From assembly GCA_021794425.1 (NCBI GenBank), contig JAJYQV010000038.1, positions 1 to 48,666 on the forward strand: 48,666 nucleotides of DNA. Direction: 5' to 3'. The position numbers were made by a program, and so were the translations under genes. The stretch is from a bacterium (GTDB lineage Bacteria; Patescibacteriota; Minisyncoccia; Phycocordibacterales; Phycocordibacteraceae). Numbering within the stretch: position 1 is the stretch's first letter; every line of letters starts with the position of its first letter. Under the pieces are notes generated by a model. That model worked only from the letters and a program-made list of their open reading frames with translations, did no database searches and had not been told where the DNA came from. Positions 4,771 through 42,341 of this stretch are shown piece by piece.

Positions 4771-4800
4771 CCCGAGCGAAGTCAAAGGCTCTCACTCAGA

Positions 4801-4836
4801 AACACGCAACCGCCCCGAAAGGGGCGGTTGCGTGTT
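4801..4836 (+). repeat. Terminator-like hairpin, copy 1 of a direct repeat (partner 5591-5625)
   Basis: aacacGcaaccgcccc gaaa ggggcggttgCgtgtt. 16-bp stem with GAAA loop. Confidence 0.8.
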
Positions 4837-4843
4837 ATATACT
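4833..4843 (+). promoter_or_regulatory. Extended -10 (TGtTATACT region) for the NYN gene, predicted near-leaderless
   Basis: tgttatatact. TATACT 4838-4843 lies 7 nt before ATG 4851. Confidence 0.4.
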
Positions 4844-4850
4844 GCATCAC

Positions 4851-5480
4851 ATGCGACGCTACGCTTTTATAGATGTTGCCAATACTAAAGGGTCGGCCAA
4901 TCTTCTCGGTTTCCAGATTGATCCACAGCGCCTTTATGACTATCTTTGCAACGAGAAGTGGTCATGCGGAGAAGTCTTTTGGTATGCGGGGCGTATCCGA
5001 AATGAAAAGAATGAGAAGGCCCGAGAGAAAATTGAGCGTATCGGCTACAAAATTCAGGACAAGGACACTCACTTTCACAAAAAACATGCGCATCTTGAGG
5101 GCGCTTGCCCGAAATGCGGCGAACCGGTTGTTCTGGATGGTCGGAACCACCGCATGCCGAAGGCAAACTGTGATGTCGAGTTAACGATAGACGCGCTTGA
5201 GAGGGCATCACCCGAGTCGGAGATATTGCTTTTTACCGGTGACGGTGACTTTCATTACCTCATTAAAAAGTTGGTGGAGAAGGGTTCGCGCGTCAGAGTA
5301 TTTTCTACCAACAAACAGGACTGGGATGGGTCGTATCGGTTCTCAACCAGAATCAAAGACTTGCTAAGCGAATATGAAAGGAGTGAGACGAGGAAAAAGG
5401 GAGAAGTTACGTTTACTGAACTCAATAACCTGCGTAATCGTATAGGGAAAGAAGATGGTAACGAGCAAGTTCAGGTATAA
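4851..5480 (+). CDS. NYN/LabA-like (PIN-related) ribonuclease-domain protein with a His/Cys knuckle insert
   Basis: 209 aa. Acidic motifs FIDVAN, NCDVELTID, FTGDGDF. Insert is HFHKKHAHLEGACPKCG...NC. Visibly AT-richer than its neighbours. Confidence 0.72.
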   Translation: MRRYAFIDVANTKGSANLLGFQIDPQRLYDYLCNEKWSCGEVFWYAGRIRNEKNEKAREKIERIGYKIQDKDTHFHKKHAHLEGACPKCGEPVVLDGRNHRMPKANCDVELTIDALERASPESEILLFTGDGDFHYLIKKLVEKGSRVRVFSTNKQDWDGSYRFSTRIKDLLSEYERSETRKKGEVTFTELNNLRNRIGKEDGNEQVQV

Positions 5481-5590
5481 ATTGAAGGGACCGCCACGAA
5501 GCGTGACGGTCCCGAGTGAACATTCATAGTATATCGCAGACGGTCGAAAATGCAACGTTATCCACACACTCTCCGGCGTGATGACCGACA

Positions 5591-5625
5591 AACACACAAC
5601 CGCCCCGAAAGGGGCGGTTGTGTGT
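5591..5625 (+). repeat. Terminator-like hairpin, copy 2 of the direct repeat
   Basis: aacacAcaaccgcccc gaaa ggggcggttgTgtgt. Same hairpin as 4801-4836, with a G:C to A:T compensatory change. Confidence 0.8.
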
Positions 5626-6466
5626 ATATGCTATTATTATCTTATGGAAAAACCGAATCGTTAAAAACGAACAGCATCCAGCTACAGCGGAGTATCCTGA
5701 AGGAATTCTTACAGAGAAGCCACCCGAGTCGTTGCCAGAACAAGATTTACAAGAGCAACAGCTCGGGAATTTATATGAACAACTTGAAAGAAAAAGTGAC
5801 ACCTTAAAGGGGTTCGAGAAGGATCAAAAGGGTCTCGCCGCAATACAAGAAAAACTTGGAATAGAAGCATCGAGTGACAAGGTCGGTAACAATGATCTCT
5901 CATTGGAAATTGAGGCAATAAAAGATAAAATCGCAAGATCAGAAAGAGAATTCTTGGAGCTACCTGAAAATCAAGAAGGGGGTATGGAAAGTACTCTCGA
6001 GGACTATCTTGACAGTGATGAATTCCTAGAATTGCGGAAAGAGATGGAAGAGTCTATTGAAGCCGCTCAAGAAAAATATATTGAGGAGAGCACTGACTTG
6101 ATGATGGCAAAATATAAAGACGAGTTTGATAGAGCGGAAAATGGAGAAAAAGCCGAGAAGCTTTTTAGAAAGAAGTTCCCAGTTTACCTCCGTGAAAATC
6201 TTACAACTTCTGAAAACGGAATTACTTTTGTCACCTTTAGGTTTAAGACCTTGAAAAGTGAGGGTGGCGAAGATGTCTTCTACGTCGAGAACATTGATAT
6301 CGTAAATAGAGAACCAGATCTACTTGAGGATTCAAGTGGTAAACCAAAAGAGGAATTTGATGAAATGCCTTCTTTCGATAAGAAAGTAGACCCTGCGCTT
6401 ATTGGCAAAAAGGAATCAGCAGAAGTGGCCGGGCTTGTTGGTAAAAGTCCAGAGGGAAGACCATAA
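5618..6466 (+). CDS. Hyper-acidic, coiled-coil-like hypothetical protein (start uncertain)
   Basis: 282-codon open frame, very Glu/Asp/Lys-rich and AT-rich. The only upstream start candidate is TTG 5618, inside the hairpin. The first in-frame ATG comes only after about 120 codons. Confidence 0.45.
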   Translation: MCVYAIIILWKNRIVKNEQHPATAEYPEGILTEKPPESLPEQDLQEQQLGNLYEQLERKSDTLKGFEKDQKGLAAIQEKLGIEASSDKVGNNDLSLEIEAIKDKIARSEREFLELPENQEGGMESTLEDYLDSDEFLELRKEMEESIEAAQEKYIEESTDLMMAKYKDEFDRAENGEKAEKLFRKKFPVYLRENLTTSENGITFVTFRFKTLKSEGGEDVFYVENIDIVNREPDLLEDSSGKPKEEFDEMPSFDKKVDPALIGKKESAEVAGLVGKSPEGRP

Positions 6467-19621: not shown

Positions 19622-20098
19622 ATGGCACATCCGAAAGAAGAACGCACCCTCATCATCCTCAAGCCCGACGCGGTGCACCGCGGCATCATGGGCGAGGTCA
19701 TCAACCGGTTCGAGCGCAAAGGCCTCAAGATCATCGGCATGAAGATGATGCAGCTCGAGGATGCGGTGCTTGAGGCGCACTATGCGCACATCGCCGACAA
19801 GCCGTTCTTCGGGGGCATCAAGGCGTTCATGAAGCAGTCGCCCGTCGTGGTCATGGCGCTCTCGGGTATCGGCGCAGTCGATGCGACACGTATCATCGTC
19901 GGTCCGACCAAGGGATTTGAAGCCGCGGCGGGCACGATCCGTGGTGACTTCTCGCTTTCGGTCCAGTCGAATCTCGTGCACGCGTCTGACAACATCGAGA
20001 ACGCGACGGCCGAGGTCACTCGCTTCTTCAAGGAGGACGAGCTCTTCGACTACAAGCGCAACGACTTTGAGTTCGTGAACGCTGAAGAAGTATTTTAG
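19622..20098 (+). CDS. ndk: Nucleoside-diphosphate kinase
   Basis: ERTLIILKPDAV...NLVHASD. Confidence 0.95.
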   Translation: MAHPKEERTLIILKPDAVHRGIMGEVINRFERKGLKIIGMKMMQLEDAVLEAHYAHIADKPFFGGIKAFMKQSPVVVMALSGIGAVDATRIIVGPTKGFEAAAGTIRGDFSLSVQSNLVHASDNIENATAEVTRFFKEDELFDYKRNDFEFVNAEEVF

Positions 20099-20386: not shown

Positions 20387-20740
20387 TCAAGAATCTCTCA
20401 GCTCCTGAAGACACTGTGCGACGCCCGTCTTGAATGGCGGCAAGTCTCTTTGAATCGTGTCCCATACTGCCTGCACATCAACCTCGGGATACTCGTGGAT
20501 GAGGAAGCCGCGCATGGCGGCGGCTGGTTTCCAGTCAATCTCGGGATATGTTTCGCGTACCGAGTCGGGGATGCGCTTGACCGCTTCGCCGATGACCTCG
20601 AGGTTGCGCACCACAGCGTCCTGCGTCTTCCCGTCTGCGTCAAAGGCTTCTGCCGACATGCTGGCCGTGTATGACTCGATGCTTGCGATGGCGTCGAGCA
20701 TGTCTTCGAGATAGAGTGTGGTGTCGCGCGGCGCGGTCAT
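20387..20740 (-). CDS. hepT: HEPN-domain (DUF86, HepT-like) toxin
   Basis: 117 aa. Rx4H motif in AAMRGFLIHEY. 4-nt ATGA overlap with the upstream MNT gene. Confidence 0.85.
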   Translation of the reverse strand: MTAPRDTTLYLEDMLDAIASIESYTASMSAEAFDADGKTQDAVVRNLEVIGEAVKRIPDSVRETYPEIDWKPAAAMRGFLIHEYPEVDVQAVWDTIQRDLPPFKTGVAQCLQELRDS

Positions 20741-21015
20741 AGAATAGAGATTTCGTCTTTGAGGATGCGCTCGCGCAGCGCCGGCTTGAGCGTGTCGTAG
20801 GCTACCAGATCGACATCCTTTCCGAGCGCTGCTTCGAGCTCCTGTTTGAGCGCGAGGAACGAGAATAGCCCATAGGGGCGGCGCATCTCGACGAGCAAAT
20901 CGACATCGCGCGCTGACGGCTCGCCGCGCGCGACCGAACCGAATACGCCGGCGCGCGTCACCGCGCGCCGTTTCAGAATCGGTGCTGCTTTTTCTCGTAC
21001 CTCGGCTAGTTCCAT
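20737..21015 (-). CDS. mntA: Minimal nucleotidyltransferase (MntA-like) antitoxin
   Basis: 92 aa. GVFGSVARGEPSARDVDLLV (GSxxRG...DxD). Confidence 0.85.
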   Translation of the reverse strand: MELAEVREKAAPILKRRAVTRAGVFGSVARGEPSARDVDLLVEMRRPYGLFSFLALKQELEAALGKDVDLVAYDTLKPALRERILKDEISIL

Positions 21016-21023
21016 ACGAGGGA

Positions 21024-21032
21024 ATCATACCA
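21024..21032 (-). promoter_or_regulatory. Extended -10 (TGgTATGAT on the minus strand) 8 nt before the mntA start
   Basis: The reverse complement of atcatacca is tggtatgat. Confidence 0.4.
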
Positions 21033-21039
21033 CATTTTG

Positions 21040-21066
21040 CGCGGCCGGCCCGAAGGGCCGGCCGCG
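21040..21066 (+). terminator. GC-rich hairpin immediately upstream of the beta-CASP gene promoter
   Basis: cgcggccggccc gaa gggccggccgcg. Confidence 0.4.
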
Positions 21067-21084: not shown

Positions 21085-22485
21085 ATGCTGAAACTTACTT
21101 CATACGGCGGGGCGGGGAAGGTGACGGGCTCGAATTTCCTCGTCGAGGGGTCGCGCGGGAAGGTGCTCGTCGACTGCGGCATCGAGCAGGGCGCTGACTT
21201 CTGCGAGGAGTGCATCTATGGCCCCTTCGCGTATGACGTAAAAAGCGTTGATGCGCTCGTCGTCACCCATGCGCACCTCGATCATGTCGGGCGCATCCCG
21301 AAGCTCGTCAAAGAGGGCTTCCGTGGGAAGATCTACATGACCCCGCCGACGAAAGACTTAGCCGAGCTCATCCTGCATGACTCGGTCGGCATACTCGGGC
21401 AGGAGGCTGCGCATCGTGGCATCGCGCCGCTCTACGAGGCGCAAGATGTTGCGCTTGCGTTCTCGCTCATCGAGACGCTCGACTACCACGTCGAGAAAGA
21501 AGTCGCGCCGGGTATCTCCGCGTACCTGCGCAATACCGGCCACATCCTCGGCTCCGCGAGCGTCCGGCTCACCGACGAGGACGGCACAACTCTCGCTTTG
21601 ACGGGCGACATCGGCAACTCGCCCTCGCCGCTCTTGCCCGACTGGGAGCCAGTGCCAGACGCCGACGCCCTTCTCATGGAGAGCGTGTATGGCGATCGCC
21701 TGCACCCGCAGCATGCCGACCGAGTGGCCAAATTGCGCGATACGCTCAAGGCGGCCATCGCGCGTGGGGGCACCATTCTCATCCCTGCCTTCTCGCTCGA
21801 ACGCACGCAGCTCATGCTCTATGAGCTCTCTAACTTCTTTGACGCGGGGGAATTGCCTAAGGTCCCCGTCTTTCTCGACTCGCCGCTCGCCATACACGTG
21901 ACCGAGGTCTATGAGAAGTGGGGTGCGACCTATTTCAAACCTGAAGCAGAAGAAGAGATGAAGCGCGAGAAGAGCTTGTTCGAGTTCCCGTTTCTCCACC
22001 AGACGCTCCATCCCGAGGACTCGGCGATGATAGGGAAGGAGAGCGACCCGAAGATCATCATCGCGGGCGCGGGCATGAGCCATGGCGGACGCATCGGCCG
22101 GTGGGAAGCGCGCTACCTGCCCGAGCCCGCCACGACGCTCGTCATCGTCGGGTATCAGGCTCCCGGCTCACCTGGGCGCCGCATGGCCGAGGGTGCGCCA
22201 TCCGTGCGGCTCGGCGGTCGCGAGGTGAAGATACGCGCAAAGGTCGAGATTCTCGAAGGCTGGTCGGCCCACGCCGACCGCGACGAGCTGCTCCGCTATG
22301 CCGAAGCGGCGCTTGCAGGCAAGCGCACCAAGGCCGTCTTCGTGGGGCTCGGCGAGCCCGCCGCCGAGCGCTTCCTCGCCCAGCGCATCCACGACTATCT
22401 CGGCGCCCGCGCCATCGTCGTGGAACCCGCCGTCACCTGGGAGGTCTCAAAGGAGGGGGTGCGTAAATTTGACGGGGAGGGATAA
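21085..22485 (+). CDS. Metallo-beta-lactamase / beta-CASP family RNA-metabolising hydrolase
   Basis: 466 aa. VVTHAHLDHVGRIP motif, later beta-CASP-like and C-terminal HADRDEL segments. Internal ATG of ORF 21037-22485. Confidence 0.85.
   Translation: MLKLTSYGGAGKVTGSNFLVEGSRGKVLVDCGIEQGADFCEECIYGPFAYDVKSVDALVVTHAHLDHVGRIPKLVKEGFRGKIYMTPPTKDLAELILHDSVGILGQEAAHRGIAPLYEAQDVALAFSLIETLDYHVEKEVAPGISAYLRNTGHILGSASVRLTDEDGTTLALTGDIGNSPSPLLPDWEPVPDADALLMESVYGDRLHPQHADRVAKLRDTLKAAIARGGTILIPAFSLERTQLMLYELSNFFDAGELPKVPVFLDSPLAIHVTEVYEKWGATYFKPEAEEEMKREKSLFEFPFLHQTLHPEDSAMIGKESDPKIIIAGAGMSHGGRIGRWEARYLPEPATTLVIVGYQAPGSPGRRMAEGAPSVRLGGREVKIRAKVEILEGWSAHADRDELLRYAEAALAGKRTKAVFVGLGEPAAERFLAQRIHDYLGARAIVVEPAVTWEVSKEGVRKFDGEG
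22411..22455 (+). repeat. Functional 3' coding end of the beta-CASP gene, copy A of a diverged duplication (partner 23260-23304)
   Basis: gccatcgtcgtggaacccgccgtcacctgggaggtctcaaaggag, encoding AIVVEPAVTWEVSKE. Confidence 0.8.
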
Positions 22486-22500
22486 AAGGTATACCATCGC

Positions 22501-22509
22501 TGTTATGGT
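22501..22509 (+). promoter_or_regulatory. Extended -10 (TGtTATGGT) upstream of the HigB-like gene
   Basis: tgttatggt, 18 nt before ATG 22528. Confidence 0.35.
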
Positions 22510-22527
22510 CGAAAAGTAACAGACCGT

Positions 22528-22899
22528 ATGAATTTTGAACCAGAGATAGAGTTATACGCTGAAGATGGAATGGAAGTAATCTATGACCTTCTTACTGAAA
22601 AGCTCGGAAACGATATCGTAAAAGTTGAGAAGAAATTAGAACACTATCAGCATGTTGCTATCTCGAACCTGCTCGCCACAAAGACACTCGACTTCATCAA
22701 TGGTACACGCAATCCACGCCTCTATGAGTTCAAAATAAAAAGTCTGTCTCGACCGATTCGATTCGTCTGTTCGATAGAAGGGAAGACGATAGTATTGCTC
22801 GATGTTTTGTTCACCAGCGGGAGCAGCGGCGCGGCAGAGAAACATGTTCAGCGATCGGCGGAGCGACTTATGAGATGGCGTTCCTGGAACCAAAACTAA
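22528..22899 (+). CDS. Putative HigB / Gp49-like (RelE-superfamily) toxin
   Basis: 123 aa, AT-richer. ...PRLYEFKIKSLSRPIRFVCSIEGKTIVLLDVLFTSG resembles phage Gp49/HigB toxins (from memory). An XRE antitoxin gene follows. Confidence 0.55.
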   Translation: MNFEPEIELYAEDGMEVIYDLLTEKLGNDIVKVEKKLEHYQHVAISNLLATKTLDFINGTRNPRLYEFKIKSLSRPIRFVCSIEGKTIVLLDVLFTSGSSGAAEKHVQRSAERLMRWRSWNQN

Positions 22900-22910
22900 C
22901 TCGCATACCT

Positions 22911-23258
22911 ATGAAATTACACGATCTTCACCAGCGAATAGGGAGAAACGCGCGCCTTGATGAAGTGCGCCGGAAACTCAACGACGACATCGCATTCCAG
23001 ATGAGCCACCGCATTGAGATGCTCCGGCTCTCGCTCGGGCTGACCCAGGAGCAATTCGCCAAGAAAATCGGAACACAACAGCCTGCCATCGCACGCATCG
23101 AGCGTGGCGTTGTCATCCCGACGCTCCCGTTCTTGCAGAAGATTGCGAAGACATTCAAAATGGAGCTCGTCTTGCCAGATTTCGTGCCGACTGCGTCGCG
23201 CGGTGCCCCGATTAAGTCGCCGCTCAAACATATCGGTCGTGCGCGTGTTGCCGCGTAG
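22911..23258 (+). CDS. XRE-family helix-turn-helix antitoxin (HigA-like)
   Basis: LGLTQEQFAKKIGTQQPAIARIERG. The start could also be 22875, overlapping the toxin gene. Confidence 0.72.
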   Translation: MKLHDLHQRIGRNARLDEVRRKLNDDIAFQMSHRIEMLRLSLGLTQEQFAKKIGTQQPAIARIERGVVIPTLPFLQKIAKTFKMELVLPDFVPTASRGAPIKSPLKHIGRARVAA

Positions 23259-23259
23259 C

Positions 23260-23325
23260 GCCATCGTCGTCGAGCCGGGCGTCACCTGGGAGATATCGAA
23301 GAATACGATTAGGAGAGTCGGGTAG
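23260..23325 (+). pseudogene. Orphan duplicate of the beta-CASP gene 3' end (copy B) running to its own stop codon
   Basis: gccatcgtcgtcgagccgggcgtcacctgggagatatcgaagaat..., encoding AIVVEPGVTWEISKNTIRRVG*. 36 of 45 nt match copy A, and the differences are mostly at third codon positions. Confidence 0.75.
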
Positions 23326-23383
23326 CACTTCGTGTTGGTACTCAGCTCTAGCCCCCCACAAAATTATATCCCCACCCACCCCA

Positions 23384-23412
23384 TAGCCAAACCCGTCGGG
23401 GGGGGGTACATT
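23384..23412 (+). promoter_or_regulatory. Predicted promoter of the Gly-rich protein gene, with a G9 tract filling the spacer
   Basis: TAGCCA (23384-23389), 17-nt spacer containing G9 (23398-23406), TACATT (23407-23412), then 7 nt to ATG 23420. Confidence 0.4.
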
Positions 23413-23419
23413 TAAAAGC

Positions 23420-24454
23420 ATGATGCACAAAAAAGTATTTTATAGAATCGCCTCCGCTTTCAAGACCACCCCGCTCGTCCTAGCACTCCTGCTCACCTTT
23501 GGCCTGAGCTACGCGTACGCCTCGTGGAGCGAACCAACGGCCACGCCGCCGGGAGGCAACGCCGACGCCCCGATTAACGTCGGCTCTGCGGCACAGAAAA
23601 AAATTGGCGGTCTTCTACTCAACACAGGAGGCGCTATTAATGGTCTCATTGTGCAGTATGGCAACGTTGGTATCGGGACGGTTTCTCCCCAAAGCCCCGC
23701 CCCCAATGGCAAAACATCCGGCAATATTACGGTGAATGACATCTACATAAGCTCAATAGGGAAATGGGCAAGTCAACTCGGGGGTGGAACCGCTGCTTCG
23801 CCATCCCAGTCTCCTGTGCTCTCGGCGACCTATACCTACACTACAAATTCCGTATGGTATAAACCCGGCAATCTTAAATATATTGTAGTTCAGGTTTGGG
23901 GTGGCGGCGGCGGCGGGTCTGGTAGCTATTCTGCATACGACGTCGGTAGCGGTGGCGGTGGCGGTGGCTATGCGAAGAAAACCCTCGACGCCGCATCACT
24001 TTCTTCATCTTATTCGGTAACGGTGGCTACAGGTGGTGCCGGTGGTTTTTCCACCTCCAATAGTGCTCAGGGTAACGATGGTGGCAACAGTTCATTTGGC
24101 GGACTGGTAACAGCTACTGGCGGCGGGGGTGGTATAAGCAATACTTCGAGTACTTATGCTGCTGGGGGTACTGGCGGTGTCGGGGAGAGTGGAGACGTGA
24201 ATGTAGTTGGTGGAAATGGCGTGACTGGCATTTTTAATTCAGGCACTAGTGTCGGTGGCACCGGTGGTGCCGGAGCCCAAGGTGGTGCCGGTGGTGCCGG
24301 TGGCATTTACTCGCAGAACGGAGGAACGGGCCAATTATTTGGAGGTGGCGGAGGTGGTAGTGGTTACGTTGATCCATGGAATCAGAGCGTCACTTACGGT
24401 GGCAGTGGCGCACCTGGTAAGGTGCTTGTGCAAGAGTATACAGCCGCCCCATAA
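23420..24454 (+). CDS. Secreted glycine-rich surface protein
   Basis: Signal peptide ending AYA|SW. WSEPTATPPGGNADAPINVGS motif. C-terminal VWGGGGGGSGSY...GGGGGGY...GGAGG glycine-rich domain. Confidence 0.75.
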   Translation: MMHKKVFYRIASAFKTTPLVLALLLTFGLSYAYASWSEPTATPPGGNADAPINVGSAAQKKIGGLLLNTGGAINGLIVQYGNVGIGTVSPQSPAPNGKTSGNITVNDIYISSIGKWASQLGGGTAASPSQSPVLSATYTYTTNSVWYKPGNLKYIVVQVWGGGGGGSGSYSAYDVGSGGGGGGYAKKTLDAASLSSSYSVTVATGGAGGFSTSNSAQGNDGGNSSFGGLVTATGGGGGISNTSSTYAAGGTGGVGESGDVNVVGGNGVTGIFNSGTSVGGTGGAGAQGGAGGAGGIYSQNGGTGQLFGGGGGGSGYVDPWNQSVTYGGSGAPGKVLVQEYTAAP

Positions 24455-24471
24455 GGAAGAAGACGAGTCTT

Positions 24472-24828
24472 TTGAAAATGAATATTGTACCGCCTATCGG
24501 GATGACTGATACCATGAGCCCTGTCCATAGAAAGAGGTGGTGGATTCTTGCAGGCATCACGCTCGCGCTCCTGGCAGGATGGCTTTGCTGGATGATTTGG
24601 CAAGGAGGATGGTACCCGTTTAGCTCGCCGAGCGCCACAGTTTCACCACGACGAACTCCGTCGAAAATGCCGCCGACAGAGCGGGGCGTACTCAACTCGC
24701 TCACGGCAACCGGATCTTCAACGGGAGACTCTACTGCAGTGCTCAAGTCGCTTGAGCCCGCATCGCAGAAGAAAACACCGACCGATAATACTGCCTCGAT
24801 ACTCGATTCGCTCACTCCGCCAAAATAA
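24472..24828 (+). CDS. Small single-pass membrane protein with three xLxSL(T/E) repeats
   Basis: TM segment WWILAGITLALLAGWLCWMIW. Repeats VLNSLTA / VLKSLEP / ILDSLTP. Confidence 0.5.
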   Translation: MKMNIVPPIGMTDTMSPVHRKRWWILAGITLALLAGWLCWMIWQGGWYPFSSPSATVSPRRTPSKMPPTERGVLNSLTATGSSTGDSTAVLKSLEPASQKKTPTDNTASILDSLTPPK

Positions 24829-25116
24829 CCTTGCCTTCTATGGCGGTGCCATGGGGCTCTACTCGAAAATAGTCACGCTTATCATGCGGTTGTTGAAACA
24901 GTAAGCAAAAGCCAGCGGCGCCGAAGGCGCCGATTCCTCATGCGAGAGCTCGGCTTCGTGCGTCTGCAGGACAGCGTGTGGGTCTTCCCGTACTCTTGTG
25001 AAGAGTTTCTAGCCCTCCTTAAGGCTGAATTGAAGATAGGAACATCGGTGCTCTACATGGTCGTCGAAGAGATAGAAAACGACAAACATTTGCGCGAGCA
25101 TTTCAACCTGAAGTGA
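24829..25116 (+). pseudogene. Start-less or truncated fragment resembling the C-terminal domain of a PaaX-like / Cas2-fold regulator
   Basis: Frame is open from 24829, and the only ATG is at 24940. ...RRRRRRFLMRELGFVRLQDSVWVFPYSCEEFLALLKAEL... The similarity is recalled, not searched. Confidence 0.3.
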
Positions 25117-25160
25117 TATCTGCTATCATATCCGACCGTGATAAATAACGGATAAGGGTG

Positions 25161-25772
25161 CTAGAGGATGAATTCGTGCACAGAGCCGTTCTTGATGACG
25201 ACGTGTTTCGTTATGCCTGGCGATCTATCTGAAAATAAGATTTTATAGGTCATACGAATAGTCCCGCCACTCGTCACGCAGATGATGTTTCCGTTGCCCT
25301 CTACAGCCTTCAATTCTTTTAAGAAAGATTCGAGTCGTGCACGGATTATCTCGGCTGAATCGCCACCCCAAGGCGAATAATCATATTCACAAAGAGAGCC
25401 GGAACCCCACGACTGTCCTTCAGCAAGTCGTGCCTTTTTCTGTTCGGTAGAGAGACCCTCAAGCGACCCTTGGTGATATTCGAGCAGTTCGTCGCGGAGC
25501 TCTATTCTCGAAGGGTCTATCTTCTTTGTCTCGGCGATAATCCCCGCTGTTTCTTTGACGCGCAATAATTTTGACGAGTATATCCTGTTGATGACGCTAG
25601 GCAACTCCTCGGCTGCTTCTCGAGCTTGCGTGCGACCGTAGATGTTCAGGGGGATGTTCGTGTCGTCTCCTGGCTTAAAGGTCACAGGCTCGTCGTGCAT
25701 CGGGCCAGAAACGCCATGCCCTAAGATGCGGTTCGCATCTGTTTCGCCGTGGCGGACTAGAAATAATTTCAT
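25161..25772 (-). CDS. Histidine phosphatase (phosphoglycerate-mutase-like) family protein
   Basis: MKLFLVRHGETDAN catalytic RHG motif. AT-richer gene. Internal ATG of ORF 25161-25826. Confidence 0.85.
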   Translation of the reverse strand: MKLFLVRHGETDANRILGHGVSGPMHDEPVTFKPGDDTNIPLNIYGRTQAREAAEELPSVINRIYSSKLLRVKETAGIIAETKKIDPSRIELRDELLEYHQGSLEGLSTEQKKARLAEGQSWGSGSLCEYDYSPWGGDSAEIIRARLESFLKELKAVEGNGNIICVTSGGTIRMTYKILFSDRSPGITKHVVIKNGSVHEFIL

Positions 25773-25778
25773 AGCGGA

Positions 25779-25787
25779 AGTGTACCA
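25779..25787 (-). promoter_or_regulatory. Extended -10 (TGgTACACT on the minus strand) 6 nt before ATG 25772, predicted leaderless
   Basis: The reverse complement of agtgtacca is tggtacact. The gap is agcgga (plus strand). Confidence 0.45.
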
Positions 25788-25816
25788 AATGAGGATGAGC
25801 ATGTCGTCGCCGAGTA

Positions 25817-25850
25817 AAACGAACACCGCCCTCTCGGGCGGTGTTCGTTT
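25817..25850 (-). terminator. Terminator hairpin downstream of rplT
   Basis: 15-bp stem aaacgaacaccgccc / gggcggtgttcgttt with loop tctc. Confidence 0.75.
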
Positions 25851-27648: not shown

Positions 27649-28566
27649 TTATTGCGAGAGCTGGGTGGGGGAGGAGAGGACGATTTCGGCCTTGCCTTGG
27701 TAGGAGGAGATCTTGCCGGTGAGGGTGACGGTCTTGCCTGCGAGCGAGGAGAGGTCGCCGAATTTCTTGGCGTCGTCGGCGAAGATGACGCCCGAGAACG
27801 GGCAGGTCTTGTAGCTCTTGCAGAAGTCGAGAAAGACGGTCCTGCTCTTGCTCGTGTAGGCCTCGACGAGGGTGCCCGTGACTGAGGCGGTCTCGCCGAT
27901 GTGCTTGGGCGCGTCAGTGTAGGGGATGATGCCGACAGAAACGGGCGCGGCCGCTTGCGCGGCCGCGTCGGTGCCATGGTAGGCGGTAAATAATCTCGTC
28001 AAAATGTTTTCGTAGGTTTGCCGCAGAGTGGGATCGGTGCCTATTTCAAGAATCTCGTCATTGATCGTTGTGGCCGAGCCGGTCCAGTTGTAGCTCCCGA
28101 GCGCGTAGGCCTGGTCGGTGACCATCATCTTGATGTGCATGATGCCAGAGCCGTCGGCGTGCTTCTCGGTCTCTACCGGGATGCCTGCGGCGACGAGCTC
28201 TTTCACGATGGGCGCGCCGTAGCTCGATGCGGCCTGGCCCGAGTCGATGATGCCGCGCACGTCGAGGCCGCGCTCTTTCGCGGCTACGAGCGCGTCGGCA
28301 ACGTCTTTGAGCGTGAACGTGTAGATGGCGAAATAAATATGACTCTTCGCGGCATCGATGAGCGCGATGAGCTCTTTATCGTTCTCTTTCCGGTCGAGCG
28401 AGTAGAGGACACGCACGGTGCCGGGGGCGGGCGAGGCGATGGTGACGCTCGGCACCGAGACGCACGTGCCGGCGACCGCCGCGTGTCCGTTTGCCGAGTA
28501 CCCCGCGAACGCCGCCGCGCCAGCGAGCATCAGCGCCACCCCCGCGCGCACTAATTTCCGCTCCAT
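27649..28566 (-). CDS. Secreted/anchored phospholipase-D-family (Nuc-like) nuclease with a C-terminal OB-like domain
   Basis: N-terminal hydrophobic segment. Single HKD motif MHIKMMVTDQAYALGSYNWT. The stop abuts the RelE stop. Confidence 0.85.
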   Translation of the reverse strand: MERKLVRAGVALMLAGAAAFAGYSANGHAAVAGTCVSVPSVTIASPAPGTVRVLYSLDRKENDKELIALIDAAKSHIYFAIYTFTLKDVADALVAAKERGLDVRGIIDSGQAASSYGAPIVKELVAAGIPVETEKHADGSGIMHIKMMVTDQAYALGSYNWTGSATTINDEILEIGTDPTLRQTYENILTRLFTAYHGTDAAAQAAAPVSVGIIPYTDAPKHIGETASVTGTLVEAYTSKSRTVFLDFCKSYKTCPFSGVIFADDAKKFGDLSSLAGKTVTLTGKISSYQGKAEIVLSSPTQLSQ

Positions 28567-40400: not shown

Positions 40401-42341
40401 TTACATCCCGATCAAGACGGGAATGACCATCGGCGCCTTGTTGGTGCGGCTGAAGAGGAACCCGGCCATAGCGTCGGTGAGGTTATTCTTCACATAGTCA
40501 AGGTCGATCGGGTTCATGCCGCGGGTCGAATCCTCGATCGACTTCTTAATGAGGATACGCGCTTCGTTTAGGAGCGGCTGGCTCTCGCGCAGGTACACGA
40601 AGCCGCGGCTGATGATGTCGGGGCTCTTCCGGAGCTTGCCGGTCTTCGTGTTCACGCTCGCGATGATGACGAACATGCCGTCCTTGGCGAGCGACTGGCG
40701 GTCGCGGATGACCACCTCCTGCATGTCGCCGATGGTGAAGCCGTCGACGACCAGCGGCGAGCTCGGCACCTTCTGCTTGTGCACGTGCATCTCCTTGCCG
40801 TCGATGATGTCGATCACCTGGCCGTTGTCGGCCAGCACGATATTCTCGCGCGGGAACCCGGACTGCTCGACCGCACGCGCGTGGCAGGTCGTCATCGAGC
40901 GGTAGCCGTAGCCCGGCATGAAGAAGGTCGGGTGCACCTGCTGGTTGATCCAGACGAGCTCGCCCGTGTTGCCGTGACCGCTCGAGTGCACGTCGCTCGA
41001 ACGGTAGTGGATGAGGGCGACGCCGTGGCGGTAGAGGTTGTCCTTCAGCCGCTGAATCGAGATCTCGTTGCCCGGAATCACCGACGAGGAGAGCACCACC
41101 GTATCGCGATCGGTAAGCGCAATCGACTTGTGCTGGCCGGTCGAGATGCGCATCAAGGCGGCGAACTCTTCGCCCTGCGAGCCGGTCGCAAGGATGAGGA
41201 TCTTGTCTGGCGGATAATTGCCTATCTCGGTCGCGGGGATGAAGGCTTCTTTCGGGACTTTCAAGAGCCCGGTCTTCTCGGCGATGTCGAGGTTGGTCTT
41301 GATCGAGCGGCCTTCGAGCACGATCTTCTTGCCGTAGCGCTCGGCAGCTTCCATGATCTTGATCATGCGCTCGAATTGCGAGGCGAAGGCCCCGATGATG
41401 AGGCGCCCGGAGACATTCTTGATGATGTCGTCGAGTGTCGCGACCACGCGCGCTTCGGGGATCGAGAATCCGTCTCGCTCGGCGTTGGTCGAGTCGGCGA
41501 CCATGAAGATGTTGTGGTCCTTCCCGAGCTCGCCCCAGACTTTGTGTTCCGACTCAGACGGGGTCGTACCGTCGTGCTCAAGGCGCAGGTCGCCGCTGAT
41601 GATCACGTTGCCTTGCGGCGTCTCCACTGAGGCGCCCATCGAGTCTGGGATCGAGTGGGTGACCGGGAAGAACTTGACCTTCGTCGAGCCGATCGTGATG
41701 GACTGACCGGTCTCGACCTCGATGATTTCGGGCTTGGGCACGTCCGGATACTCTTCCTGGCGGCGCTGGATCATCACCGAGGTGAGGCGCTGCGTGTAGA
41801 TGGGCGGATTGCCGAAGCGCGGCAGGGTGAACGGGATGCCGCCGATGTGGTCGAGGTGGCCGTGCGTGATGATGACGCCCTTCACGCGGCTCGCGTTCTT
41901 CTCGAGATACTTGGTGTTCGGGAGGATGTAGTCGACGCCTGGCGACGCCTCCTCGGAGACGAACTGGAAGCCTGCGTCGAAGACGAGGATGTCGCCGGTG
42001 GCGCCCACCTCGACCGCGACCATGTTGCGGCCGACTTCTTCGAGGCCACCGAGCGGCACGATGCGGACGGTGTTTGCTGCGGGCTGCTCAGGATAGTAGT
42101 CGGCGGCGCGGGACGCCGTGCGCGGGTTTGATGCCGGGCGACGCAGGATGCGCTGGATGCGCCGCGTGGCGCTCCCAGGGCGGGCGCCGCCTTGTCTGCC
42201 GGTTTGCGCGCGCGCGCGCGAACCGCCTCGCTCAGATGAGAGCGGGGGACGCGGAGCACTTCGAGGTGTCGACTGTCTCGGGTTCGGACCAGAGCCGGAA
42301 GAAGGCGTGGGCGCGGGAGCAGGTGCTGGTGATGGTTGCAT
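40401..42341 (-). CDS. rnj: Ribonuclease J (beta-CASP) with an approximately 90-aa low-complexity Pro/Ser/Arg-rich N-terminal extension
   Basis: RIVPLGGLEEVGRNMVAVEV, ITHGHLDHIGG, conserved C-terminal domain. Confidence 0.93.
   Translation of the reverse strand: MQPSPAPAPAPTPSSGSGPNPRQSTPRSAPRPPLSSERGGSRARAQTGRQGGARPGSATRRIQRILRRPASNPRTASRAADYYPEQPAANTVRIVPLGGLEEVGRNMVAVEVGATGDILVFDAGFQFVSEEASPGVDYILPNTKYLEKNASRVKGVIITHGHLDHIGGIPFTLPRFGNPPIYTQRLTSVMIQRRQEEYPDVPKPEIIEVETGQSITIGSTKVKFFPVTHSIPDSMGASVETPQGNVIISGDLRLEHDGTTPSESEHKVWGELGKDHNIFMVADSTNAERDGFSIPEARVVATLDDIIKNVSGRLIIGAFASQFERMIKIMEAAERYGKKIVLEGRSIKTNLDIAEKTGLLKVPKEAFIPATEIGNYPPDKILILATGSQGEEFAALMRISTGQHKSIALTDRDTVVLSSSVIPGNEISIQRLKDNLYRHGVALIHYRSSDVHSSGHGNTGELVWINQQVHPTFFMPGYGYRSMTTCHARAVEQSGFPRENIVLADNGQVIDIIDGKEMHVHKQKVPSSPLVVDGFTIGDMQEVVIRDRQSLAKDGMFVIIASVNTKTGKLRKSPDIISRGFVYLRESQPLLNEARILIKKSIEDSTRGMNPIDLDYVKNNLTDAMAGFLFSRTNKAPMVIPVLIGM

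Follow-up and report, generated by a model that had tools for sequence, protein, structure and literature searches.

We analysed a contig of 48,666 nt (below, the window means the whole of this stretch; contig JAJYQV010000038.1 of GenBank assembly GCA_021794425.1, our contig C32) from a metagenome-assembled genome (MAG) of the Patescibacteriota family Phycocordibacteraceae, which has 0.69 Mb in 45 contigs. In the window, a small toxin-antitoxin (TA) cassette sits between two diverged copies of the 3' coding end of a beta-CASP ribonuclease gene. One copy is still the end of the intact gene and the other is an orphan directly behind the antitoxin stop codon. On balance, we lean towards reading the orphan as a non-functional recombination scar, the former resident 3' end of the beta-CASP gene, with the present in-gene tail and the cassette imported from a relative. 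The pattern is general: there are at least 14 such junctions in this 0.69-Mb genome, beside conserved genes. The features that matter most are the following.

21085-22485, plus strand: intact beta-CASP metallo-beta-lactamase-fold ribonuclease gene, 466 aa (Pfam Beta-Casp 1.8e-25, Lactamase_B, RMMBL)
22409-22452, plus strand: left (in-gene) copy of the direct repeat, beta-CASP codons 443-457 (local alignment, 36/44 identical)
22469-22497, plus strand: promoter-like site of the cassette, TTGACG-17 nt-TACCAT (consensus scan), overlapping the last beta-CASP codons and the stop
22528-22899, plus strand: toxin gene, 123 aa, predicted RelE/HigB fold, very rare family
22875-23258, plus strand: XRE/HTH_3 antitoxin gene (Pfam HTH_3 1.1e-14; weak NCBIfam matches to antitoxin-type helix-turn-helix proteins)
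23258-23325, plus strand: orphan beta-CASP tail (repeat at 23258-23301, coding remnant at 23260-23325)

The intact gene ends in AIVVEPAVTWEVSKEGVRKFDGEG and its stop codon (22411-22485), the antitoxin stop is at 23256-23258, and the orphan, which has no start codon and no upstream gene body, encodes AIVVEPGVTWEISKNTIRRVG and a stop. All of these are as given in the sequence-only reading, an earlier look at the letters without database searches. The best ungapped local alignment pairs 22409-22452 with 23258-23301, with 36/44 bases identical (36 of 45 in the earlier manual alignment) and a score of 53. When the downstream 3.4 kb was shuffled 1000 times with dinucleotides preserved, the scores were 20.3 +/- 2.2 and never exceeded 33, so the similarity is not background. 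A profile hidden Markov model (HMM) of orthologous tails also found the orphan (32 bits, E=1e-7), with no further tail copy in the whole genome, and a genus-wide tail profile search scored it at 38.5 bits (E=1e-9). Chance similarity is ruled out by the shuffles and profile searches together. The longest identical runs between the copies are 13 nt (GCGCCATCGTCGT and CGTCACCTGGGAG). Between the copies there are only the toxin and antitoxin genes, and this stretch is indeed the AT-richer one, with a GC content of 0.40-0.55 against 0.67-0.70 at the beta-CASP gene end.

The copies differ in the way that coding sequences do. The 14 codons that they share hold 7 differences, 5 of them at third positions, and the Nei-Gojobori estimates are a synonymous divergence (dS) of 0.76 and a nonsynonymous divergence (dN) of 0.07 for these codons, or 0.86 and 0.28 over 20 codons. 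The earlier remark that most differences fall at third codon positions is borne out by these values. Orthologue-like divergence of this kind is best explained if one copy arrived with the cassette from another lineage.

Relatives without the cassette have a single tail. The arrangement ndk > beta-CASP >< rplT-rpmI-infC is conserved across the order, and beta-CASP orthologues are present in 203/221 genomes of the genus in the kept order ndk > beta-CASP >< rplT. Between the beta-CASP stop and the end of rplT there are 6 to >1500 nt in the genus, with ~30-55 nt for the 'empty' state, and 3380 nt in the window. Of the relatives with context, the closest are L084 (82% protein identity) and L088 (86%; genomes are cited by our own handles), and these have a gap of 45-47 nt and no cassette. 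L084, L088, G011 and most of the genus genomes have one beta-CASP tail with rplT 6-55 nt further on. The usual orthologue ends in ..A[IV]VPExGxTWEI[ST]K[DE]SV[KR][KR][IV] and a stop, and the orphan has that length. The final 4 codons of the intact window gene (DGEG) run past this usual end, into the putative cassette promoter.

Comparison with these relatives is suggestive of the orphan being the resident allele and of the in-gene tail having been imported with the cassette. At the sites where the copies differ, the orphan has the G011, L084 or L088 base in 6/7 cases. Against G011 and L088, the proportion of synonymous differences (pS) is only 0.31 in the orphan but reaches 0.81 in the in-gene tail, with a gene-wide value of 0.55 (standard deviation 0.15-0.22 in windows of the same size). 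The orphan and the intact L084 tail share 26 identical nt (GTCGAGCCGGGCGTCACCTGGGAGAT), and the first 13 residues of the orphan match L084 AIVVEPGVTWEIS. The in-gene tail has a canonical-type ending of its own, KEGVRKF (compare KEGVKRV in L088), with ~39% DNA identity to the NTIRRV of the orphan. The reverse pattern would be expected of a copy that decays in place.

The cassette had been called HigBA-like in the sequence-only reading, and this name is supported by the predicted fold and the gene order, but not by sequence family or activity. As in HigBA and other Gp49-like type II TA systems of the RelE superfamily, the toxin gene comes first and an XRE-type helix-turn-helix antitoxin gene follows. 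An AlphaFold2 model of the toxin from a seven-sequence alignment (pLDDT 90) has M. tuberculosis HigB1 as its best fold match (7awk; TM 0.61, prob 1.0), followed by HigB2, RelE, HigB and ParE, and 17 of the top 22 matches are HigB, RelE, ParE or PfiT toxins. The toxin differs from these systems in matching no sequence family: nothing meaningful came from Pfam, NCBIfam or a profile search against Protein Data Bank sequences. Its own family is extremely rare: among 1.8 billion representative proteins there are only 6 distant relatives, and two of the 6 have sub-threshold matches to Gp49 (PF05973). The true start of the antitoxin is likely the ATG at 22911, giving 115 aa, which is also the length of the gene call in a sister assembly. 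The site at 22469-22497 is promoter-like by consensus match and would be the promoter of the cassette.

Among 221 genus genomes and ~400 genomes of the order, we found the toxin elsewhere only in G323 (62% amino-acid identity). In G323, the cassette stands directly behind beta-CASP; its antitoxin has 147 aa and a third gene comes next, ahead of the native terminator and rplT, and there is no orphan tail at the site. A promoter-like site (TTGACGGG + 17 nt + TATCAT) likewise overlaps the beta-CASP stop. A public contig, apparently of the same genome, has the identical arrangement. This contiguity means that 'gene end + cassette' exists as a unit in another lineage, with the window copy truncated on the right. 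The C-terminal ~22 residues of the window antitoxin are unrelated to the G323 homologue, and similarity stops near 23190, inside the 3' end of the antitoxin gene, as would be expected if an illegitimately joined fragment ended there.

Orphan tails recur at the beta-CASP gene across the genus. We searched a 23-residue tail profile over 222 genus genomes, 207 of which had a match. Strong orphans, each in an open frame of <100 aa at 0.6-1.2 kb from the intact tail, are present in 10/207 genomes, and ~48 genomes have at least two matches at E<=0.5; 20 loci were read. Seven of the inserts carry a gene for a 193-aa PaaX-like protein with a promoter motif repeated at both ends, and other cargo is a HicAB pair (G569) and a zeta-like kinase gene (G429), with one insert lacking a clear open reading frame (ORF; G591). 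Orphans with at least five different cargoes start within ~12 nt of codons 441-444 (profile positions 1-5, G-A-R-A). In G452, the two copies are identical (50/50), the orphan keeps the canonical ending ..DSVKKI and the native terminator, and the left copy reads into the insert.

The same signature occurs beside other genes of the genome. Self-comparison gave at least 12 further loci where the last 30-130 nt of a gene recur 0.3-1.5 kb downstream, past an insert of 1-3 genes. These repeats mostly end at or just after the stop codon and their identity ranges from 100% to 75%. Eleven loci with a repeated gene 3' coding end are C43:40818/41264, C15:19825/20652, C43:9036/10341, C19:128/1300, C20:2766/3494, C15:3264/3782, C6:4337/5039, C23:5599/6281, C30:6582/8002, C12:23195/23943 and C5:17511/18078, and synonymous changes predominate in most of them. 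The junctions carry three NYN nucleases, two HepT/MNT pairs, one each of a zeta toxin, a MazF toxin and a RelE/ParE pair, a PaaX-like gene and an IS200-like Y1 transposase. When 12 repeat pairs are pooled, the differences at codon positions 1/2/3 number 32/31/66 (p=2e-5 against equal thirds), and one pair has 8 base changes with zero amino-acid change. The junction copies have diverged as orthologues of two lineages do, and such coding-type divergence is not expected of a copy decaying in place. The edges of the repeats share no motif among the 14 loci.

At one junction inside the window, 27067-27116 matches 27653-27703, and a RelE/ParE pair lies between the end of a PLD nuclease gene (27649-28566, minus strand; ..YQGKAEIVLSSPTQLSQ and stop) and the orphan copy (..SQGKAEIVLSSPDQLRT..). 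Of 43 core bases, 37 are identical, and 4/6 core differences are at third positions. L084, which is empty at the beta-CASP site, is also empty at this second TA site (located between infC and the PLD gene), as is L083. PLD orphans were found in four genomes with differing cargo (the others are G023, G478 and G520), and their edges are at profile positions 14, 21 and 27. This scatter contradicts fixed edges as a general rule. The direction test on the PLD pair gave mixed signals that assign neither copy. At the rpsJ locus, a NYN-domain gene (4851-5480) is inserted behind rpsJ and flanked by two copies of one terminator hairpin, at 4800-4843 and 5590-5632, which differ by compensatory stem changes (CACGCAACC..GGTTGCGTG versus CACACAACC..GGTTGTGTG).

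One observation on a single pair stands apart. Between C43:40818-40943 and 41264-41389, 13/14 differences are G versus A and the 14th is T/C, with none at a third position in the assumed frame. A mutation signature running in one direction may explain this, or the frame may have been assumed wrongly.

No recombinase was found in or near the window insert, nor in ~10 comparable inserts that we examined; the only recombinases of the genome, one tyrosine and two serine enzymes, are encoded on other contigs. The absence of a nearby recombinase and of a shared edge motif argues against a classical site-specific element. The sequence-only reading had offered two explanations, an integrative element with a replacement gene end or recombination from a diverged relative that left the resident end as a scar. 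Common to both is a replacement end that belongs with the cassette, now in the gene, and a displaced resident end, now the orphan. This common core is supported by the synonymous bias, the relative-like codons of the orphan and the G323 cassette behind the same gene. Of the two, the second fits best; a classical integrative element would lack its defining part here, as neither this insert nor the comparable ones hold a recombinase.

We infer the direction, the donor and the recombination pathway as follows. The donor would have been a related Kaiserbacteria-type lineage that already had the TA pair directly behind the same gene. The incoming module would have held the diverged last ~22 codons, the cassette promoter, the HigB-fold toxin and the XRE antitoxin cut short at its 3' end. 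The most likely route has two joints. At the first, the anchor would have been a crossover between homologous sequences, within the strongly conserved block immediately upstream of codon 441-443. The second joint would have been illegitimate, with the incoming end inside the antitoxin 3' end being joined to the resident gene at codon ~443. The resident tail would in this way have been duplicated and not replaced, leaving the gene intact with an imported tail and 4 codons that extend into the cassette promoter, and the TA pair would then have stabilised its own retention. The overall process would be homology-facilitated illegitimate recombination after DNA uptake.

Homology-facilitated illegitimate recombination in natural transformation is described in Acinetobacter and Streptococcus pneumoniae, and the experimental cases usually delete recipient DNA and leave no duplicated end. 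The likeness to our case lies in a conserved-gene anchor on one side, a non-homologous join on the other and the lack of an element-encoded enzyme, and the process fits the position of the inserts beside conserved genes. The differences are that the event left a duplicated end here and that the tail alone is an outlier, while the upstream windows are not.

Several observations weigh against an import of the tail with the cassette. The first is that the native terminator adjoins rplT, 2.5 kb past the orphan, and the orphan is not followed by native intergenic DNA. The orphan is therefore not the original end of an untouched site. In a direct comparison, acgaacaccgccctctcgggcggtgttcgt in the window corresponds to acgaaaaccgcccaatagggcggttttcgt, which comes directly after the beta-CASP stop of L084. 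With the native terminator adjoining rplT and not the orphan, everything from 22486 to ~25814 is inserted DNA made up of several modules, and the site has been struck more than once. The region to the right of the orphan is laid out as follows.

23326-25814: further inserted modules between orphan and native terminator (Pfam; absent from this interval in empty-site relatives)
23420-24454: Gly_rich_2 protein gene (Pfam)
24472-24828: ORF
24829-25116: PaaX-like remnant (PaaX_M 5.8e-7)
25161-25826, minus strand: histidine phosphatase gene (Pfam)
25815-25850: native stop-like TAA and bidirectional terminator hairpin (~25819-25849), common to rplT

The TAA with the terminator at 25815-25850 may be the final vestige of the original beta-CASP end. 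Apart from this stop-like TAA, a profile search and direct comparison detected no third, older orphan beside the native terminator.

The second point concerns direction. The evidence for which copy is resident comes from only ~10 synonymous sites, and the nearest available relatives have ~79% DNA identity; a collection of 5.8 billion proteins gave no strains >90% identical except the same species, with the structure unchanged. Third, there is no sign of a donor tract upstream in the gene in DNA, protein or synonymous-site windows, and identity to relatives stays level up to the last window. The crossover would then have to sit in the ~50-nt block just upstream of the tail, a block that is nearly invariant across the genus. 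Fourth, the right joint lies within 23190-23258, and with the donor sequence lacking no clear microhomology is demonstrable there. Fifth, random illegitimate joints do not predict the shared edge of the beta-CASP orphans. Finally, G452 looks like true in-place target duplication or gene conversion and not like import.

A possible but unlikely origin is duplication in place, in which a staggered break led to ~44-66 nt being copied on both sides of the insert, the copies diverged later, and the left part may have undergone allelic replacement. This has been described for restriction-modification gene complexes as 'insertion with long target duplication' (Nobusato et al. 2000, Gene 259:99; Furuta et al. 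2010, Nucleic Acids Research 38:2428, PMC2853133), and it is the closest known class for the beta-CASP cassette. The published cases have the same anatomy, with repeats often across stop codons; they are seen mostly in naturally competent bacteria, and their mechanism is unknown (PMC2853133). Our cassette is like them in being a small selfish 'addiction' module with no mobility gene of its own, in having direct repeats of >30 bp (44 nt here) with a single copy at the empty site of relatives, and in having no transposase, integrase or other mobile-element gene between the copies. The identical copies of G452, whose orphan has its canonical end and native terminator, speak for this origin, as do the repeat identities across the genome, which from 100% to 75% resemble an age series.

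There are differences too. The cargo here is a TA pair (elsewhere in the genome NYN, zeta, MazF and PaaX-like genes) where the published cargo is restriction-modification, and the host genome, a reduced one of the Patescibacteria, is exceptionally dense in junctions. In the published cases the repeats hardly differ from each other or from the target, with 43-47 of 46-47 bases the same (PMC2853133), whereas the window copies are 82% identical, with a synonymous bias and the in-gene copy as the outlier. Neutral decay of an orphan predicts that the unusual states sit in the orphan, but we find them in the functional copy, and the differences at this locus are mostly synonymous. The separate canonical-type ending of the in-gene tail, so unlike that of the orphan, is also not what copying in place would give.

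We are more doubtful that the cassette is a miniature site-specific element moved in trans, with an attP that mimics the gene end, an attL that restores the gene and the orphan as attR. Integrative elements (prophages, genomic islands and tycheposon-like elements) insert at the 3' end of a tRNA or protein gene, for which they supply a replacement. The window shares with these the gene kept intact by an element-borne end, the displaced end as an attR-like orphan and the reuse of the site. The recurrent site with its fixed boundary favours such a mechanism: strong orphans lie 0.6-1.2 kb downstream in 10/207 genomes behind varied cargo (PaaX-like, HicAB, zeta-like kinase and HigB/XRE), and all beta-CASP orphans start at profile positions 1-5. 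Two genomes, L041 (G476) and L043 (G450), moreover have a 9-codon in-frame insertion in beta-CASP (LHQDSRRGAD and LPQDSRRGVR) at DYL^GARA, exactly where the orphan tails of other genomes start.

Unlike integrative elements, the 0.77-kb insert (22486-23258) has neither an integrase nor another recombinase, and the copies show no evident long identical core, the longest identical blocks being 13 nt. None of the ~10 comparable inserts holds a recombinase either, and the three of the genome are all on other contigs. Many unrelated junctions of one genome bear the same signature. The edges of the 14 share no motif and the PLD orphan edges vary. Seven of the beta-CASP cases have one cargo and are possibly one event.

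Campbell-type integration of a circle is a further rival, but the short homology of 82% identity makes a simple RecA-driven single crossover unlikely. An independent public assembly, GCA_027331065.1, has both the cassette and the orphan, with 99.9% identity over 13 kb; it differs from the window genome by 7 substitutions and 2 indels, one of the substitutions being in the orphan, at 23302. An artefact is thus highly improbable: a 45-contig MAG can contain odd joins from strain mixtures, but a chimeric assembly of strain variants would have to recur in this separate assembly and in the many genomes with analogous structures, including 1-2-contig assemblies such as G591, and the shuffle control rules out chance.

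Beyond this locus, we make a tentative suggestion that we ourselves rate as improbable. The genus may move small addiction and nuclease genes independently of a recombinase, or by a yet-unknown enzyme, with a copy of the neighbouring junction (such as the last ~22 codons or a terminator hairpin) serving as a homing arm. Insertions would then land preferentially at the beta-CASP tail, where the break point would be fixed at codons 441-444 and at least five unrelated cargoes would have used it.

The spread of TA and other small defence or addiction genes that lack their own mobility gene is poorly understood. Long target duplication has so far been described only for restriction-modification systems, and in a search of the literature we met no account of TA cassettes inserted in this way. 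With at least 14 junctions in 0.69 Mb, whose ages span identical to 75% identical copies, the genome studied here is a densely packed natural sample of them, and the genus offers repeated events at one defined site along with empty sites, so the mechanism can be tested by comparison. The junctions also show genome-reduced, presumably DNA-scavenging bacteria gaining accessory genes beside their most conserved genes. Alone, the beta-CASP scar is of moderate interest; it is of more interest as a well-resolved member of a pervasive duplication of junctions with no recombinase nearby.

The PaaX-like cargo, the commonest at the beta-CASP site, was seen in L062, L064, L065, L067, L068 and L069 (G452, G522, G566, G432, G612 and G007). 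The protein has an N-terminal hydrophobic segment, a winged helix and a Cas2-like domain. A promoter/operator motif of ~27 nt that includes the start codon (CCACGACCGTGGTATACTTTTGATATG) recurs after the gene, ~17 nt before the orphan. In the genome studied here, the family is represented by the remnant at 24829-25116 in the window and a full copy at C30:6735-7304.

To the left of the beta-CASP gene, the window has the following genes.

19622-20098: ndk
20387-21015, minus strand: HepT/MNT TA pair

The sister assembly of 99.9% identity (L082) lacks 165 nt, window positions 20883-21047, through a deletion between the short similar sequences AGGG[G/C]CGGC. With it, the promoter of the MNT antitoxin gene and its first ~44 codons are gone, and the HepT toxin gene is whole. 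Right of the orphan, a promoter-like site on the minus strand (23390-23363, TTGGCT-16-TATAAT, 10/12 consensus matches) is aimed leftwards at the orphan and the antitoxin 3' end, and, as a consensus match only, could yield an antisense transcript. The G run at 23398-23406, in the promoter spacer of the Gly-rich protein gene, has 9 G in the window and 11 G in the sister assembly, which fits length variation of the tract.

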